Below, one piece after another: positions 18,775-26,987 of a stretch of 64,000 bases of DNA. The DNA is taken from assembly GCA_964495015.1 (NCBI GenBank), contig CAZBUD010000007.1, positions 21,462-85,461 of the forward strand, read 5' to 3'. The position numbers were made by a program, and so were the translations under genes. This DNA comes from an uncultured Enterobacteriaceae bacterium. GTDB lineage: Bacteria; Desulfobacterota; Binatia; Bin18. The notes under the pieces are model-generated. The model was not told where the DNA came from, did no database searches, and was given only the letters and a program-made list of their open reading frames with translations. Within the stretch, counting starts at the first letter, position 1, and each line of letters opens with the position of its first letter.

Positions 18775-18816
18775 GTGTGGATTGGTTTCTGTTTCTTATG
18801 TGGTAGGACGAGCATC

Positions 18817-20256
18817 GTGAAAATTATTACCCGCAGCTTCCTCTTCTTATCCTTGCTTGTTGCGGCATACGCCGGGACATACGCCTCTGTCCTGGCGCGT
18901 CACGAGCGGGCTGTCCATCTTGCAGCGCTCAAACAGGCAACGTTCTTCTCTCTGGCCGCGTCGGGGAACAAAGGGTCGCTTGAAACTGCGATGCAGATGT
19001 TCCATTCCGTTCGTACAATGCAGTTCCACGCAGAACCTCATTTTGCGGATTTCCTATGGCGGGATCGAGAAATTGAGATACCGAACGCGAGTGCCTTGGA
19101 AAGCTGGGCCGGTCGCTTCTTTCCCACGTGTAAGGACTCCCTATGCCAAGGTTTGTCTTTGCACGGACTGGATCTCCATGGCCTCAGTCTGAGCAAGGCG
19201 CAGTTGTCCCATGCTGATCTGAGCGAAGCAGATTTGCGTGGAAGTGATCTCTCCGAGGCGGATCTGAGCGAGGCAGATTTGCGCGGGGCGAAACTGACAC
19301 AGGCGCTGCTGACGGGCGCTCGCTTACGCTATGCAAACTTGACGAATGCCGAATTATCCAAGGCCGATCTGAAAAATGCAGACCTGTCTGACGCGGAGCT
19401 GCCAGGAGTGAATCTGCAACAAGTGAAACTACAATGGGCAAAGCTCAATCGGACGAATCTCTCCGAGGCGAACCTGGCCGAGGCCAATTTGTACGGGGCC
19501 GATCTGCGCGGAGCCAAGCTCGAAGGCGTGAGGCTACCTGGAGCAATCCTGGTCGGCGTAGATTTAATCGGTGCTGGCCTTGTCGAGGCTGACTTGCGTG
19601 GCGCGAACCTTGAAGATGCAGATCTCATTCAGGCCGAGCTGCGTGGGGCCATGCTGGCCGGAGCGAATCTTAAGGATGCTGATCTGCACCAAGCCAATTT
19701 GTTTCAAGCTGATCTGACCCAGACAAAACTGGGGAGCGCCGACCTGTTCCAAGCGAATTTGGTGGGAGCAAAATTGGCAGGCGCTGATCTCAATGGTGCA
19801 GATTTGGAGCACGCTGACTTCAGCGGAGCAAACCTAAAGGGCGCAGATTTGACTGGGGCCAACCTTGCCGGGGCCGAGTTGTCCGGCGCTGTCATTGATG
19901 AACACACCCGGCTCGATGAGAAATGGCGGCTGGTGTGGGACATTGTAAACGAGCAAGGTAAAGTTGTCAGACTGGCTGGAGTGAACTTGCGGGATGCTGC
20001 GCTGGCTGGGGTGATGTTGGAAGGGGCGAATCTGCAGGGCGCCGATCTGAGTGGGGCCAATCTGCGTTATGCTATCCTCAGCGGGGCGGACATGACCGAC
20101 ATCTCTCTGCAACGGGCGGATTTGCACGAAGCTGACCTGGAAGGGGCGAACCTGGCCGGCGCCGATTTAAGCGATGTTCAAGGGCTGACCAAAGGGCAGC
20201 TCGAATCAGCCAAGACCTATAAGGCCGCGAGGTTGCCTGACTATCTAAACTGGTAG
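18817..20256 (+). CDS. Membrane-anchored pentapeptide-repeat protein
   Basis: N-terminal TM (IITRSFLFLSLLVAAYAG), a ~110-aa unique domain, then two long blocks of A(D/N)LxX pentapeptides (ADLSEADLRGSDLSEADL...). GTG at 18817 or 18775. Confidence 0.9.
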   Translation: MKIITRSFLFLSLLVAAYAGTYASVLARHERAVHLAALKQATFFSLAASGNKGSLETAMQMFHSVRTMQFHAEPHFADFLWRDREIEIPNASALESWAGRFFPTCKDSLCQGLSLHGLDLHGLSLSKAQLSHADLSEADLRGSDLSEADLSEADLRGAKLTQALLTGARLRYANLTNAELSKADLKNADLSDAELPGVNLQQVKLQWAKLNRTNLSEANLAEANLYGADLRGAKLEGVRLPGAILVGVDLIGAGLVEADLRGANLEDADLIQAELRGAMLAGANLKDADLHQANLFQADLTQTKLGSADLFQANLVGAKLAGADLNGADLEHADFSGANLKGADLTGANLAGAELSGAVIDEHTRLDEKWRLVWDIVNEQGKVVRLAGVNLRDAALAGVMLEGANLQGADLSGANLRYAILSGADMTDISLQRADLHEADLEGANLAGADLSDVQGLTKGQLESAKTYKAARLPDYLNW

Positions 20257-23921: not shown

Positions 23922-24383
23922 TTACTCGGTAGCATCCGGGATTACTTTGACGGCAATCGTCTTACCCGATTCAACCCGGCCCACACGCGGCCTCGCGAAT
24001 CCAAACCATGCCAGCCAGTATTTCTTTTTGTAGGCTTCGCCCATGCGATCCACCATAGTCGAGTTGGTGAAAATTTCCGCTTTGCCGCCAAACATCGGCC
24101 CGTCTTTGCTGCCGACCCAAATGCGGACGGCATTGCGACCACTCTTGATCCTTTTGGCTTTATACGATGTTGGGCCGACGGTAAAATACACCACGTCATC
24201 GGCATACATAAACCAAATGGGGGCTGCAGTACTCCATTCGCCATTCTTGCGCTGGGTGGCAACATAGATTTCTTTTGCGGATTGGAGCTGGGTCTTGGCG
24301 TCGTTGCTGAGGGCGTGGGCGTTATGGGCCATACCCACGATGCAGAGCCCGGCAGTAATGAGCAGACCGACAAAGATATTCAT
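23922..24383 (-). CDS. Secreted split-barrel (pyridoxamine 5'-phosphate oxidase-like) family protein
   Basis: Signal peptide MNIFVGLLITAGLCIVGMAHNAHA. The pattern ..VATQRKNGEWSTAAPIWFMYADDVVYFTVGPTSYKAKRIK.. resembles the PNPOx/GSP26-like fold. ATG at 24383 follows GGAGG. Confidence 0.5.
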   Translation of the reverse strand: MNIFVGLLITAGLCIVGMAHNAHALSNDAKTQLQSAKEIYVATQRKNGEWSTAAPIWFMYADDVVYFTVGPTSYKAKRIKSGRNAVRIWVGSKDGPMFGGKAEIFTNSTMVDRMGEAYKKKYWLAWFGFARPRVGRVESGKTIAVKVIPDATE

Positions 24384-24432
24384 TGCTTCCTCCACGCTAG
24401 AGTTTTTTTCGTTATTGGATACTAGTTAACCT

Positions 24433-24861
24433 TCAATCCCCAGCCGTCACAATCCGAGCAACGCGCGACAGCGGGTGGCCCTTGGCATCTATCTGCAAGG
24501 TGTTGAACCAGCCAAACGGCGTGCGGGTGCTATCGAGTTTTGCTACGATCAGACATTGGTGTGTTCGATCTAAAATATCGATTGCATCTTGTGGCGAGCC
24601 GAGCGTGGCAAACAGATGCGCGAATGGGTGGAGCACGATGGTGGTGACTTTAAGCTGATTCGCCAGCTTGGCGATTTCGCCACTCGCGCGCCGCGCGACG
24701 CGGTCAGGATTCTCTTCATCGCCTTGTTCGACACTGGCCAGTACAACGAGTGCGTTGTCCACTTTCGTCACGGGATCGTCGTAGTCTTCGTAGACCGTGG
24801 AACGACCTTTTTTTGTGATGGTGCAGCAGAAGGCGTTGACGTGCAGGATGAGGAAACGCAT
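24433..24861 (-). CDS. Stand-alone archaeal-type threonyl-tRNA synthetase editing domain / DTD2-like protein (tRNA-Thr_ED-like)
   Basis: Similar by eye along its full length to the N-terminal editing domain of archaeal ThrRS: MRFLILH, ALVVLASVEQGDEENP, IVLHPFAHL, TPFGWFNTLQIDAKGHPLS. No synthetase core is attached. Confidence 0.75.
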   Translation of the reverse strand: MRFLILHVNAFCCTITKKGRSTVYEDYDDPVTKVDNALVVLASVEQGDEENPDRVARRASGEIAKLANQLKVTTIVLHPFAHLFATLGSPQDAIDILDRTHQCLIVAKLDSTRTPFGWFNTLQIDAKGHPLSRVARIVTAGD

Positions 24862-24927: not shown

Positions 24928-25290
24928 CTACGATTTGTTTTTCTCAAAATTACGTAGAAACTCGATATTCAGCTCAAGCATCTCTCCCAGCCATAACGCC
25001 CGGCCGGTGTGATCCGCGACATCCTCACCAGCGCGGGGATGAATGAGGACGCTGAGTCCTGAATGATTCAACATCAACCAGGGTACGACCTTGTCAAACT
25101 GCTCTGGATTAAAGGCGACTTGATACATGGCCTGCGGGTGGGGGCCCACGGGCTCTTCTCGCCAACGGCCAAGCTCGACATCGAACTGATCGCCTAATGC
25201 TTCGCGAATACCCTCGGCCGTAGAACGGCTGGATTCATCGTAATATACATGGGCATGAAAGCCTTTAATCTCGCTGTTGTCTTGTTCCAT
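24928..25290 (-). CDS. DOPA 4,5-dioxygenase (DodA-like) family protein
   Basis: 120 aa with FHAHVYYDE...GPHP..MYQVAF.......V.WLMLN..GLSVLIHP, characteristic of the small DOPA-dioxygenase family. Confidence 0.8.
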   Translation of the reverse strand: MEQDNSEIKGFHAHVYYDESSRSTAEGIREALGDQFDVELGRWREEPVGPHPQAMYQVAFNPEQFDKVVPWLMLNHSGLSVLIHPRAGEDVADHTGRALWLGEMLELNIEFLRNFEKNKS

Positions 25291-25969: not shown

Positions 25970-26987
25970 TTACAGCCGTACCCAGTTCGGGCCGTCGTCT
26001 GTTGTTTTGAACAGACCACTATAGATGCCCACATACAAAGTCTGCGGATTATGTGGATCTAAAGCAAGCACCTCAACGTTTGTATCAGGCAGGCCGGTAT
26101 TACTGGCTGTCCAGCTCGCGCCCGCCGTTGTCGTTCTGAAGACGCCTTGATCAGTCCCGGCATATAACGTCTTCGGCTCAGTTGGATCAACGTTGAGTGA
26201 TCCAACAACGGCTCCGGCTGGAATCATGGTATTTGCAGCCGGCCAGCGCGTCCCCGCGTCGTGGCGGTTAAAGATGCTGGCGCCGGTCGCGGCATACAGT
26301 AGTGCCGGATTGGTGGGATCGACCGTCAACGCAGGGATAAACATATCCAGCAAGCCCGTGCTCTTTGGGGTCCTGGACTGCCGGGCATTCGTACTCTGGA
26401 ACACTCCATTCTTTAAGGTGCCGATATAGAGCGTCAGGGGTTGTGTCGGCACGCTGGCCACCGCGTTAATTTTTTCCCGCCAGACCGGTATTACGAGCGC
26501 CCCACTGCCTGCCTCGATTCGTGCTTTCGAATATGCCGTCCCCGCTGGCAGCATACACATGGACTGATTGTTTAGGATTCAGAGCAAAAAGATATGGATG
26601 CGTATTCGGAGGAAGGCTGGTGTCCGCAGGGGCCCAATTTTCTCCGCTTGTAGTACTCTTGAACAGCCCGCCGTACGCCTCCGCATATAAAATGCTGGTA
26701 TCGGGAGGGTCAATTGCAACGGCTTCAATGTTTCGATCCGTCAAGCCCTTTTTCAACGCACGCCAGGTTTTCCCACCGTCCGAACATGTAAAAATGCCAT
26801 CGCATGTTGCGGCGTACAGGGTATTAGGGGCACTGGGATTAAACGCAAAGCCGAGTTTAGATACGTCTCCGAGCTTTCTGGGGACCGTGGTCTGCGCATC
26901 CAAAAGGGGCGTATAGCCAAAGTGGATTGGGTGAATTGCTACTGCCATGAGAAGACAGAATCCGCGACAGAGACGTACAGGCCACAT
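25970..26987 (-). pseudogene. Secreted BNR/Ycf48-like beta-propeller protein split by a frameshift at an A6 run
   Basis: Both ORFs (26466-26987 and 25970-26560) carry repeats of the type GIF.S.DGG.TW / GVFRTTTAGASW. Removing one A from GGGAAAAAATT (26468-26475 region) joins ..NTGLAGK|INAVASVPTQPLTLY.. in one frame. Signal peptide at the 26987 end. Confidence 0.7.

Follow-up and report, generated by a model that had tools for sequence, protein, structure and literature searches.

Here, we report a free-standing homologue of the editing domain (ED) found in the threonyl-tRNA synthetase (ThrRS) of archaea, encoded in a stretch of 64,000 nucleotides of bacterial DNA (assembly GCA_964495015.1, contig CAZBUD010000007.1, positions 21,462 to 85,461), hereafter designated as the window. 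The gene, referred to below as the ED gene, lies at positions 24433 to 24861 of the window and encodes a protein of 142 amino acids (aa). It belongs to a group of bacterial and archaeal single-domain proteins, designated as clade C, in which the scaffold of the editing domain is kept and several polar residues of the acyl pocket are replaced. Based on these residues, the protein is proposed to be a trans-acting acyl-tRNA deacylase with a preferred substrate other than Ser-tRNA(Thr), a reading to which we assign a probability of about 0.5.

A complete editing-domain gene without a synthetase

The gene is a complete open reading frame (ORF), running on the minus strand from an ATG at 24859-24861 to a TGA at 24433-24435. 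An initial annotation of this DNA had given the same 142-aa ORF without its strand. The assignment draws on the Pfam match, on an AlphaFold2 (AF2) model compared with solved structures by Foldseek, and on the ratio of non-synonymous to synonymous substitution rates (dN/dS).

24433..24861, minus strand: complete ED gene, free-standing tRNA-Thr_ED homologue of clade C, 142 aa (ORF, PF08915, AF2, Foldseek, dN/dS)

A Pfam search matched residues 1-136 to positions 1-135 of the 137-position tRNA-Thr_ED profile (PF08915) with an E-value of 1.4e-34 and 119.5 bits (gathering cut-off, 30.2 bits). The full-length collinearity with the archaeal ThrRS editing domain claimed in the initial annotation, and the Pfam outcome that it expected, were thus borne out, and the 142-aa protein matched no other Pfam family at E<=1. 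Two NCBIfam models of longer proteins, PRK03991 (archaeal ThrRS; 110.9 bits, cut-off 484) and PRK14938 (Ser-tRNA(Thr) hydrolase; 78.4 bits, cut-off 362), aligned only over profile positions 1-140 of 613 and 1-134 of 387, respectively, indicating that the window protein is the editing domain alone. Sequence searches of the PDB retrieved the N-terminal domains (NTDs) of M. jannaschii ThrRS (4rrf, E 1.2e-24), of P. abyssi (1y2q, E 2.5e-22) and of A. pernix ThrRS-2 (4rr6, E 5.8e-16). The P. abyssi blocks in this alignment ('evlvafisvekvdeknp', 'nvfvypfahl' and 'apfgyykafkisckghpla') are essentially those that the initial annotation had given for Pyrococcus, apart from the end of the last one, which reads HPLA and not HPLS.

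Archaea normally carry the ThrRS-type editing domain fused to threonyl-tRNA synthetase. Searching the window and 41 related loci by tblastn with five full-length archaeal ThrRS sequences detected the editing domain only, with neither a ThrRS catalytic core nor an anticodon-binding domain, and a linked thrS, anticodon-binding domain or other aminoacyl-tRNA synthetase was rejected for these loci. The absence of such domains had been correctly noted from the start, and the ORFs on either side code for a member of the DOPA-dioxygenase family and for a PNPOx-like protein. The window protein was not accepted as a full-length archaeal ThrRS, which has about 610-640 aa, given its size, its missing core and a PRK03991 score far below the cut-off. 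Crenarchaeal ThrRS-ed was rejected as well: the PRK14938 score is below its cut-off, and the ORF stops at TGA 24433-24435, leaving no C-terminal anticodon-binding domain.

According to the AF2 model, built on a 38-sequence alignment (pLDDT 94.4, pTM 0.89), the protein adopts a DTD-like alpha/beta fold that can be superposed on the solved NTDs. Foldseek comparison with the P. abyssi, M. jannaschii and A. pernix crystal structures gave TM-scores (TM) of 0.89-0.97, root-mean-square deviations of 1.0-1.4 Å and identities of 33-36%, with individual values of TM 0.96 and 1.0 Å for P. abyssi 3pd5_A, TM 0.92-0.97 for 4rrf and TM 0.89 for 4rr6. A comparison with archaeal ThrRS NTDs had been suggested in the initial annotation. 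Its label 'DTD2-like' did not hold: DTD1 structures were more distant Foldseek matches (TM about 0.6-0.7, identity 8-16%; E. coli DTD 1jke, TM 0.69, E 2e-6), no DTD2 structure was found among the matches with E<=0.001, and no PF04414 match was obtained at E<=1. A suitable annotation is 'threonyl-tRNA synthetase editing domain-containing protein, free-standing'; the JGI name 'threonyl-tRNA synthetase' and the name DTD2 are both wrong.

The window protein shares with the archaeal ThrRS NTD the full length of PF08915, the fold and a set of scaffold residues (His83, Pro80-Phe81-Ala82, Phe117-Gly118 and Gly129-His130-Pro131 in the NTD). It differs by lacking the synthetase and anticodon-binding domains, by four replacements (Lys121 to Asn, Glu134 to Arg, Tyr120 to Phe and Ser85 to Phe) and by a Gly-Arg-Ser insertion at residues 19-21. 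The NTD was reportedly characterised as a Ser-tRNA(Thr)-specific domain by Hussain and co-workers in 2006. Crenarchaeal ThrRS-ed, a Ser-tRNA(Thr) hydrolase that is said to have been described by Korencic and co-workers in 2004, is related to this editing domain, acts in trans and partners with an editing-less ThrRS-cat. In contrast to the window protein, ThrRS-ed has about 390-410 aa, carries a ThrRS anticodon-binding domain and keeps the Tyr-Lys and Glu signature.

Active-site residues and the clade C signature

Clade C is characterised by four sequence segments, which read, in the numbering of the window protein, K/R-G19-R20-S21, H78-P-F-A-H82-L-F84, P-F-G-W-F119-N120 and A-K-G-H129-P-L-S-R133-V-A-R. 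ThrRS-linked domains have YPYAHLS, PFGWYK and CKGHPLSELSR at the last three, and Ala/Thr, Ile/Leu or a gap, and Lys at the Gly-Arg-Ser site. The segments lie as follows.

24799..24807, minus strand: Gly19-Arg20-Ser21, clade-specific motif right after the first beta-hairpin (alignments)
24610..24630, minus strand: His78-Pro-Phe-Ala-His82-Leu-Phe84, active-site strand/loop (alignments; residue roles from PMC4491819)
24502..24519, minus strand: Pro115-Phe-Gly-Trp-Phe119-Asn120, adenosine/aminoacyl-binding loop (alignments; PMC4491819)
24463..24483, minus strand: Lys127-Gly-His129-Pro-Leu-Ser-Arg133, cross-subunit loop (alignments; PMC4491819)

Residues were counted in a tree set of 22 clade C members and 50 ThrRS-type sequences (group A), Phe84 and Arg133 having served to define clade C. 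Among the residues that were not used in the definition, Arg20 is present in all clade C members and in none of group A (0/50), with Gly19 and Arg20 invariant and Ser21 at 90% or more in a set of 20 members. Phe119 replaces Tyr120 in 22/22 (Tyr in 44/50 of group A), and Lys121, found in 49/50 of group A, is replaced throughout the clade, the four commonest residues being Asn (15), Tyr (3), His (1) and Thr (1), with Asn120 in the window protein. The two defining residues are by construction present in all 22 members: Phe84 stands in place of Ser85 (Ser in 43/50 of group A) and Arg133 in place of Glu134 (Glu in 42/50). By contrast, Pro79, Phe80, Ala81 and His82 align with P. abyssi Pro80, Phe81, Ala82 and His83, and Gly128, His129 and Pro130 are common to the window protein and the NTDs. 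Over 38 diverse family members, H7, D48, H82, L83, G117, G128 and H129 are invariant and P130 reaches at least 90%.

The roles of these positions are known from the P. abyssi NTD, where the side chains of seven residues are found no more than 6 Å away from the scissile bond, namely Pro80, Phe81, Ala82, His83, Tyr120, Lys121 and Glu134 of the partner monomer (Ahmad et al. 2015, PMC4491819). According to the same study, His83 touches the carbonyl, and the P. abyssi H83A mutant has no activity; the catalytic water is held in position by Lys121, and Lys-to-Met mutants of the NTDs of three species are severely impaired; Glu134 contacts the alpha-amino group across the dimer interface; and catalysis is proposed to depend on the 2'-OH of A76. 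Mutation of Tyr120 or Glu134 to Ala left activity and Ser/Thr discrimination intact, and recognition was found to proceed largely via the main chain and the RNA, the beta-OH of Ser being read by the main-chain nitrogen of residue 121 (PMC4491819). The window protein keeps the Pro, Phe, Ala and His of this set, and the three other, polar residues are changed (Tyr to Phe, Lys to Asn, Glu to Arg). This pattern suggests that the protein has preserved both its scaffold and an RNA-assisted chemistry and that the acyl pocket has been remodelled, with a charge reversal at the contact to the alpha-substituent. As the side chains of Tyr120 and Glu134 are dispensable in vitro, their loss lowers the likelihood of membership in the NTD type more than it lowers mechanistic likeness. 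The Gly-Arg-Ser motif may provide an extra contact to a phosphate or another anion.

Two further observations concern the variability of these proteins. Most Binatia-type copies carry a vicinal Cys-Cys pair in the first beta-hairpin (SFCCTIT; Cys12-Cys13, window positions 24823-24828) and a few have Arg-Cys, while most other clade members have Ser-Ser or Lys-Ser at this site and Cys13 recurs sporadically; the pair could be a redox-sensitive site. In the closest Binatia genome copy (L001, 8001-8426; 96% identical), the active-site strand reads HPFPHLF, with Pro at the nearly invariant Ala81 (P. abyssi Ala82), which may be either a real variant or a sequencing error.

Conservation, phylogeny and distribution of clade C

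Comparisons with Binatia orthologues gave dN/dS values of 0.03-0.13 for the ED gene, with a median of 0.085 over the 51 pairs with unsaturated dS and a median proportion of synonymous differences (pS) of 0.76. The gene is thus functional and under strong purifying selection. The host is a Candidatus Binatia bacterium, as the best genome matches of the window protein are Candidatus Binatia metagenome-assembled genomes (MAGs) with 95-96% protein identity and the same neighbouring genes; an identical protein, again with the same neighbours, occurs on marine-metagenome contigs. The bacterial origin and the diderm envelope assumed in the initial annotation agree with these matches and with the presence in the window of an AsmA-family protein, which is consistent with a diderm envelope. 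Recent horizontal acquisition in the window genome was ruled out by the matching GC content (55.5% for the gene, 53.9% for the window), by orthologues throughout Binatia and by saturated dS between species. The gene is an old resident in Binatia.

The family is large. A search of 5.8 billion proteins returned 1460 clusters at 90% identity, and the best 120 of these 1460 clusters all comprised proteins of 141-181 aa with PF08915 only, 72-95% identical. An exhaustive search of representatives at 50% identity yielded 601 matches, and a metagenome scan with the clade C alignment 389 confirmed hits. All 16 C-type representatives measure 132-179 aa, and among the 62 representatives of at least 200 aa, 61 were ThrRS-type and none C-type, so that clade C was never fused in that sample.

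In a neighbour-joining (NJ) tree, the core of clade C (Binatia, Bacillota, Bathyarchaeia and Heimdallarchaeota) received a bootstrap value of 100%, and still 97% without the seven signature columns. An extended clade that adds ARMAN-2 and DPANN-like sequences reached 75% and fell to 18.5% without these columns, indicating that the extended grouping leans on the signature itself. Clade C adjoins another free-standing group (Prolixibacter, Desulfovibrio sp. X2 and Methanosphaerula), which is marked by an HSFAHLS...SLAKVFK signature; Lys121 is missing from this group too, and position 134 is occupied by Lys or Arg.

Members of clade C were detected in at least 17 Binatia-type species-representative MAGs (71-96% identity), in Bacillota, among them the cultured Desulfocucumis palustris NAW-5 and Peptococcaceae BRH_c8a (56-62%), in one Thermodesulfobacteriota MAG, and in Bathyarchaeia, Thermoproteota and Heimdallarchaeota (55-59%). 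Identities between archaeal and bacterial members are 51-62%, and the two are intermixed in the tree, which makes transfer between the domains plausible in either direction. The horizontal acquisition considered in the initial annotation is therefore plausible for the clade, which mixes archaea and bacteria; in Binatia, the presence of the gene in at least 17 species-level genomes, its GC content and the saturated dS speak for long residence. In databases, the relatives are named 'threonyl-tRNA synthetase editing domain-containing protein' (NCBI), 'hypothetical protein' or, wrongly, 'threonyl-tRNA synthetase'.

In two independent contigs (L112, 6001-6420, and L091, 3404-3823; SDBU01002125.1 and SDBS01005228.1, respectively), codon 106 of the ED gene is an in-frame TAG, and the third of the protein that lies downstream of it shows perfect conservation. 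Read-through, reassignment of TAG to pyrrolysine or otherwise, or a very recent pseudogene may account for this.

Single-domain proteins of this type have been defined as 'tRNA-Thr-ED' by Mukai et al. 2017, who reported 'a wide distribution among prokaryotes' (PMC5424206, Text S1, Fig. S4 and Data Set S1) with bacterial members in Magasanikbacteria, Roizmanbacteria, Prolixibacter and Desulfovibrio sp. X2. The list of stand-alone relatives in the initial annotation, limited to crenarchaeal ThrRS-ed and DTD2, was thus incomplete. Like the window protein, which has 142 aa and an Arg at the site in question, these proteins are single domains of about 130-145 aa without an anticodon-binding domain, in which Glu135 (M. 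jannaschii numbering) is the one substrate-contact residue that is not conserved; they were proposed to hydrolyse other aminoacyl- or hydroxyacyl-tRNAs (PMC5424206). One member listed in Data Set S1, ARMAN-2 EET89716, carries the GRS/PFAHLFG/AKGHxLAR signature and falls together with the window protein in the NJ tree. As bacterial homologues that consist of a single domain and vary at Glu135 had been described before on the basis of their sequences, the window protein joins a group already on record. The Mukai papers differ in their focus, which is on the SepCysS-linked MSBL1/methanogen clade, with a ThrRS-type Tyr-Lys pocket, and on SepRS enzymes fused to a tRNA-Thr-ED-type domain (Mukai et al. 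2022, PMC8762117); the clade of the window protein is not singled out, Binatia are not included and no activity was measured for any clade. The accessible part of a 2024 review of editing factors does not discuss single-domain proteins. The initial annotation had also envisaged a common, already characterised bacterial family: with 1460 clusters the family is indeed common, but it is not characterised.

Gene context in Binatia and in other lineages

The window is ordinary chromosomal DNA, with genes for SecD/F, RecJ, acyl-CoA dehydrogenases, heme-copper oxidase subunit I, the AsmA-family protein, pyruvate kinase and a GH65 enzyme. The heme-copper oxidase subunit makes the host look aerobic. 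The two genes next to the ED gene are as follows.

24928-25290, minus strand: DOPA 4,5-dioxygenase-family protein (PF08883, E 5e-36), 66 bp upstream of the ED gene
23922-24395, minus strand: PNPOx-like protein with the look, by eye, of an N-terminal signal peptide, 37 bp downstream of the ED gene

Further neighbours on the same strand encode a weak CMD-like protein, a beta-lactamase-fold protein and a luciferase-like monooxygenase. No translation gene was found among the immediate neighbours in the window, and the sole tRNA in the window, Arg(CCG), lies 5.8 kb from the ED gene. No promoter or terminator above shuffled expectation flanks the gene, and no obvious Shine-Dalgarno sequence precedes its ATG. 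A role in anti-phage defence was considered and dropped, as PADLOC gave no match.

Gene context was compared in 89 loci, including 80 added metagenomic loci, which were dereplicated at 85% protein identity to 45 lineages (19 Binatia-type and 26 other); single loci are cited below by their L-numbers. The Binatia-type lineages display at least four neighbourhoods, comprising CMD/DOPA-dioxygenase/PNPOx-like, PNPOx/CoA-transferase, TldD-PmbA/acyl-CoA ligase/ABC transporter and MFS/RidA/amidohydrolase genes. Since these arrangements are unrelated to each other, attempts to derive a function from them led nowhere. DsrE, ArsR or OsmC neighbours occur in 0/19 of these lineages. In one of the other Binatia arrangements (L004, L007 and L058), PNPOx-fold proteins of another cluster adjoin the ED gene.

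Outside Binatia, a DsrE-family gene occurs within three genes of the ED gene in 9/26 lineages, usually adjacent and on the same strand; these neighbours are PF02635 YchN/TusD-like proteins (about 116-127 aa, CGTC motif) or PF13686 proteins. An ArsR-type regulator with two Cys about 70 residues apart lies directly upstream in six of the 26, its second-best NCBIfam match being BigR, with 62 bits well below the cut-off of 155. OsmC-like genes were found in three of these lineages and SQR-like genes in five loci. The recurrent order is a two-Cys ArsR-type regulator, then the ED gene, then a DsrE/YchN-like gene, often with DsrE2, OsmC-like and SQR-like genes nearby, an arrangement for which no description was found in the literature. 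As genomes have few DsrE genes, finding one in 9 of the 21 lineages for which both flanks could be seen goes far beyond chance, by our own estimate rather than a computed statistic. The association of DsrE with the ED gene is real outside Binatia and absent in Binatia.

L108 5655-6812: ArsR-ED-DsrE type cluster (also in L103, L105, L111, L099, L101, L091, L112, L033, L032, L114, L117, L118, L026 and L027)
L108 3801-5027, minus strand: ThiI, flanking the ED operon
L108 7670-8857: SQR-like protein, type III, flanking the ED operon
L108 8872-8945, minus strand: tRNA-Cys, flanking the ED operon
L108 9842-10960, minus strand: MoeB/UbaA-like E1 adenylyltransferase, flanking the ED operon
L111 8773-8851, minus strand: tRNA-Cys(GCA), 2.3-2.8 kb downstream of the ED gene together with SepCysS
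L111 9217-10515, minus strand: bona fide SepCysS (TIGR02539, 365.7 bits, cut-off 365.25; PRK09331, 405.6 bits, cut-off 301)
L018 7158-8000, L019 7065-7823 and L029 7196-7957, plus strand: TtcA-family PP-loop ATPase directly upstream of the ED gene, in a Bacillota/Desulfocucumis subgroup

SepCysS was found at one locus only. In the archaeal lineage represented by L111 and L108, the clade C ED operon lies within a sulfur island, repeating the SepCysS/tRNA-Cys/tRNA-Thr-ED theme that was reported, with sulfur genes, for a different, ThrRS-like tRNA-Thr-ED clade (Mukai et al. 2017, PMC5424206). This adjacency is present in L111 and not in the window. In the Bacillota/Desulfocucumis subgroup, the best NCBIfam match of the PP-loop ATPase is TtcA (tRNA 2-thiocytidine synthetase), which at 196 bits stays below the cut-off of 272 bits. 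A gene resembling ADP-forming acyl-CoA synthetases and another conserved gene, both labelled by eye from the sequence, follow nearby. L020 and L031 contain the gene cluster of this subgroup too, with no ED ORF called in either.

Two other observations were made in the window. Overlapping ORFs of 196 and 173 aa at 25970-26987 (minus strand), with weak BNR/Sortilin-Vps10 repeat matches, belong to one homology cluster; contig L002 has a single ORF of 339 aa in their place, and the window copy may be frameshifted or split. At 18775-20256 (plus strand), a 493-aa protein with an N-terminal hydrophobic segment consists almost entirely of pentapeptide repeats (PF00805, E 1e-88).

Proposed activity and alternative explanations

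The protein is best described as a small enzyme with a DTD-like fold, most likely homodimeric, and as a stand-alone paralogue of the editing domain at the N-terminus of archaeal ThrRS. It would act in trans on the 3' end of charged tRNA, most likely by holding the terminal adenosine and the esterified acyl group in a pocket of three loops, 78-HPFAHLF-84 and 115-PFGWFN-120 of one subunit and 127-KGHPLSR-133 of its partner. Like the characterised domains, with which such a dimeric, RNA-assisted hydrolysis is presumably shared, the enzyme would use no protein nucleophile and would hydrolyse the ester by a positioned water that is helped by the A76 2'-OH. The swapped polar contacts at positions 120, 121 and 134 of the NTD, together with the Gly-Arg-Ser motif, suggest that Ser-tRNA(Thr) is probably not the preferred substrate. 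A more likely one would be an acyl-tRNA that tolerates or needs a positive charge at the alpha-substituent or side chain, with an anionic, alpha-hydroxy or N-blocked acyl group. The trans-editing role put forward in the initial annotation is thus kept in general terms, and its simplest form, editing of Ser-tRNA(Thr), is weakened since clade C replaces Lys121, Glu134 and Tyr120.

Several points weigh against this proposal. With recognition by the NTD relying mainly on the main chain and the RNA, and with Tyr120 and Glu134 dispensable, changes in side chains need not alter specificity (PMC4491819). Where Arg20 and Arg133 sit with respect to the pocket is suggested by homology. The protein lacks an anticodon-binding module that would account for affinity and selectivity for tRNA, and none of the unrelated neighbourhoods in Binatia contains translation or sulfur genes. 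Finally, no biochemical study of any clade C member was found in literature searches, which turned up only the two Mukai papers and reviews.

In the classical alternative, the protein would edit Ser-tRNA(Thr) in trans and back up or replace the editing function of the bacterial ThrRS, for example in cells with a ThrRS lacking the N2 domain or with an oxidised editing cysteine. The closest characterised homologues all hydrolyse Ser-tRNA(Thr), and His83, the 117-120 backbone loop and the cross-subunit Gly-His-Pro are conserved. The main-chain reading of the Ser beta-OH in NTDs, as well as the activity and specificity of Y120A and E134A mutants, also speak for this role (PMC4491819). Moreover, the editing Cys182 of bacterial ThrRS is inactivated by H2O2 (PMC4041444), so that a cysteine-independent backup could be useful; OsmC-like peroxidase genes do occur near some relatives. 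We nevertheless regard this role as rather unlikely, because the lysine whose mutation to Met severely impaired three NTDs (PMC4491819) is replaced in 22/22 clade members and because Glu134 to Arg reverses the charge at the alpha-amino contact. In addition, an archaeal-type domain from M. mazei was inactive on bacterial Ser-tRNA(Thr), with U73 implicated, as reported in the 2024 review. The clade was never found fused to ThrRS, and no thrS was detected in the window or the 41 loci. It also occurs in Bathyarchaeia and Heimdallarchaeota, which generally carry a full-length ThrRS with its own NTD. The gene context outside Binatia points in another direction, towards a sulfur- or Cys-linked quality control in which the enzyme, in response to sulfur or redox stress, would free tRNA(Cys), or a different tRNA with U73, from an incorrect or damaged acyl group. 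This group might be Ser, O-phosphoserine, or Cys in persulfidated or oxidised form, and Arg133 and Arg20 would bind the anionic group. Anaerobic bacteria and archaea would then express the gene from a sulfide- or persulfide-responsive operon (ArsR/BigR-like, ED, DsrE), and in Binatia the gene would have been retained for housekeeping, standing by itself. The DsrE, two-Cys ArsR-type and SQR-like neighbours are in line with this idea, as are SepCysS and tRNA-Cys(GCA) in L111, ThiI, tRNA-Cys and the MoeB/UbaA-like E1 in L108 and the TtcA-family ATPase in three Bacillota loci, and Ser-tRNA(Cys) editing has been suggested by Mukai et al. for another tRNA-Thr-ED clade and for the SepRS fusions (PMC5424206, PMC8762117). 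Yet such neighbours are missing from all 19 Binatia-type lineages, the window host looks aerobic, SepCysS is confined to a single locus and the substrate is deduced purely from two arginines, which makes this explanation unlikely in our view.

Two other activities would depart further from the proposed acyl-tRNA deacylase. The protein might act outside tRNA, as a hydrolase or binder of a small adenosine-linked ester (free aminoacyl- or acyl-adenosine, or a nucleoside metabolite) or as an inert adaptor, given that it has no domain for binding the tRNA body, that the water-positioning Lys is lost, that its Binatia neighbours are catabolic and redox enzymes and not translation genes, and that the characterised domain contacts mainly the terminal adenosine and the acyl group (PMC4491819). 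We consider this improbable: isolated P. abyssi and A. pernix domains act on whole tRNA and discriminate among tRNAs (PMC4491819, PMC8762117), the adenosine-pocket residues and His82 are invariant in the family, and neighbours vary as they would for a housekeeping gene. The DTD-like fold, with TM 0.69 to 1jke, and the free-standing state and DTD-like size recall a D-aminoacyl-tRNA deacylase, that is, a chiral proofreader like DTD or DTD2. Free-standing DTD acts on tRNA without an extra domain, which also counts against a role outside tRNA. DTD (DTD1) and its animal paralogue ATD are, like the window protein, small and presumably dimeric trans-editing factors of this fold. However, membership in DTD was rejected since no Tyr_Deacylase match was obtained at E<=1, the identity is only 8-16%, and the cross-subunit Gly-cisPro dipeptide that defines chiral selectivity is absent, the segment reading Lys-Gly-His-Pro, like that of the L-Ser-specific NTDs. 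Archaeal and plant DTD2 (PF04414, GEK1) shares only the general role of a free-standing aminoacyl-tRNA deacylase; it belongs to another Pfam family, and the search results given above, with neither a sequence nor a structural match, led to its rejection. A chiral proofreading function is thus highly unlikely.

Implications

Trans-editing factors set which mischarged tRNAs a cell tolerates. To our knowledge, every trans-editing family tested so far (DTD, ATD, DTD2, AlaX, YbaK/ProX, ThrRS-ed and CtdA) guards against a specific chemical threat. Clade C is abundant and strongly conserved across bacteria and archaea, and its pocket differs at the residues that touch the amino acid in solved homologues. 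The recurring link with DsrE, ArsR and SQR genes, plus SepCysS at one locus, provides a concrete lead that hints at a sulfur or cysteine connection. A clade C substrate, if identified, would represent a new class of error for translational quality control and would put to the test the view that main chain and RNA confer specificity in the DTD fold.

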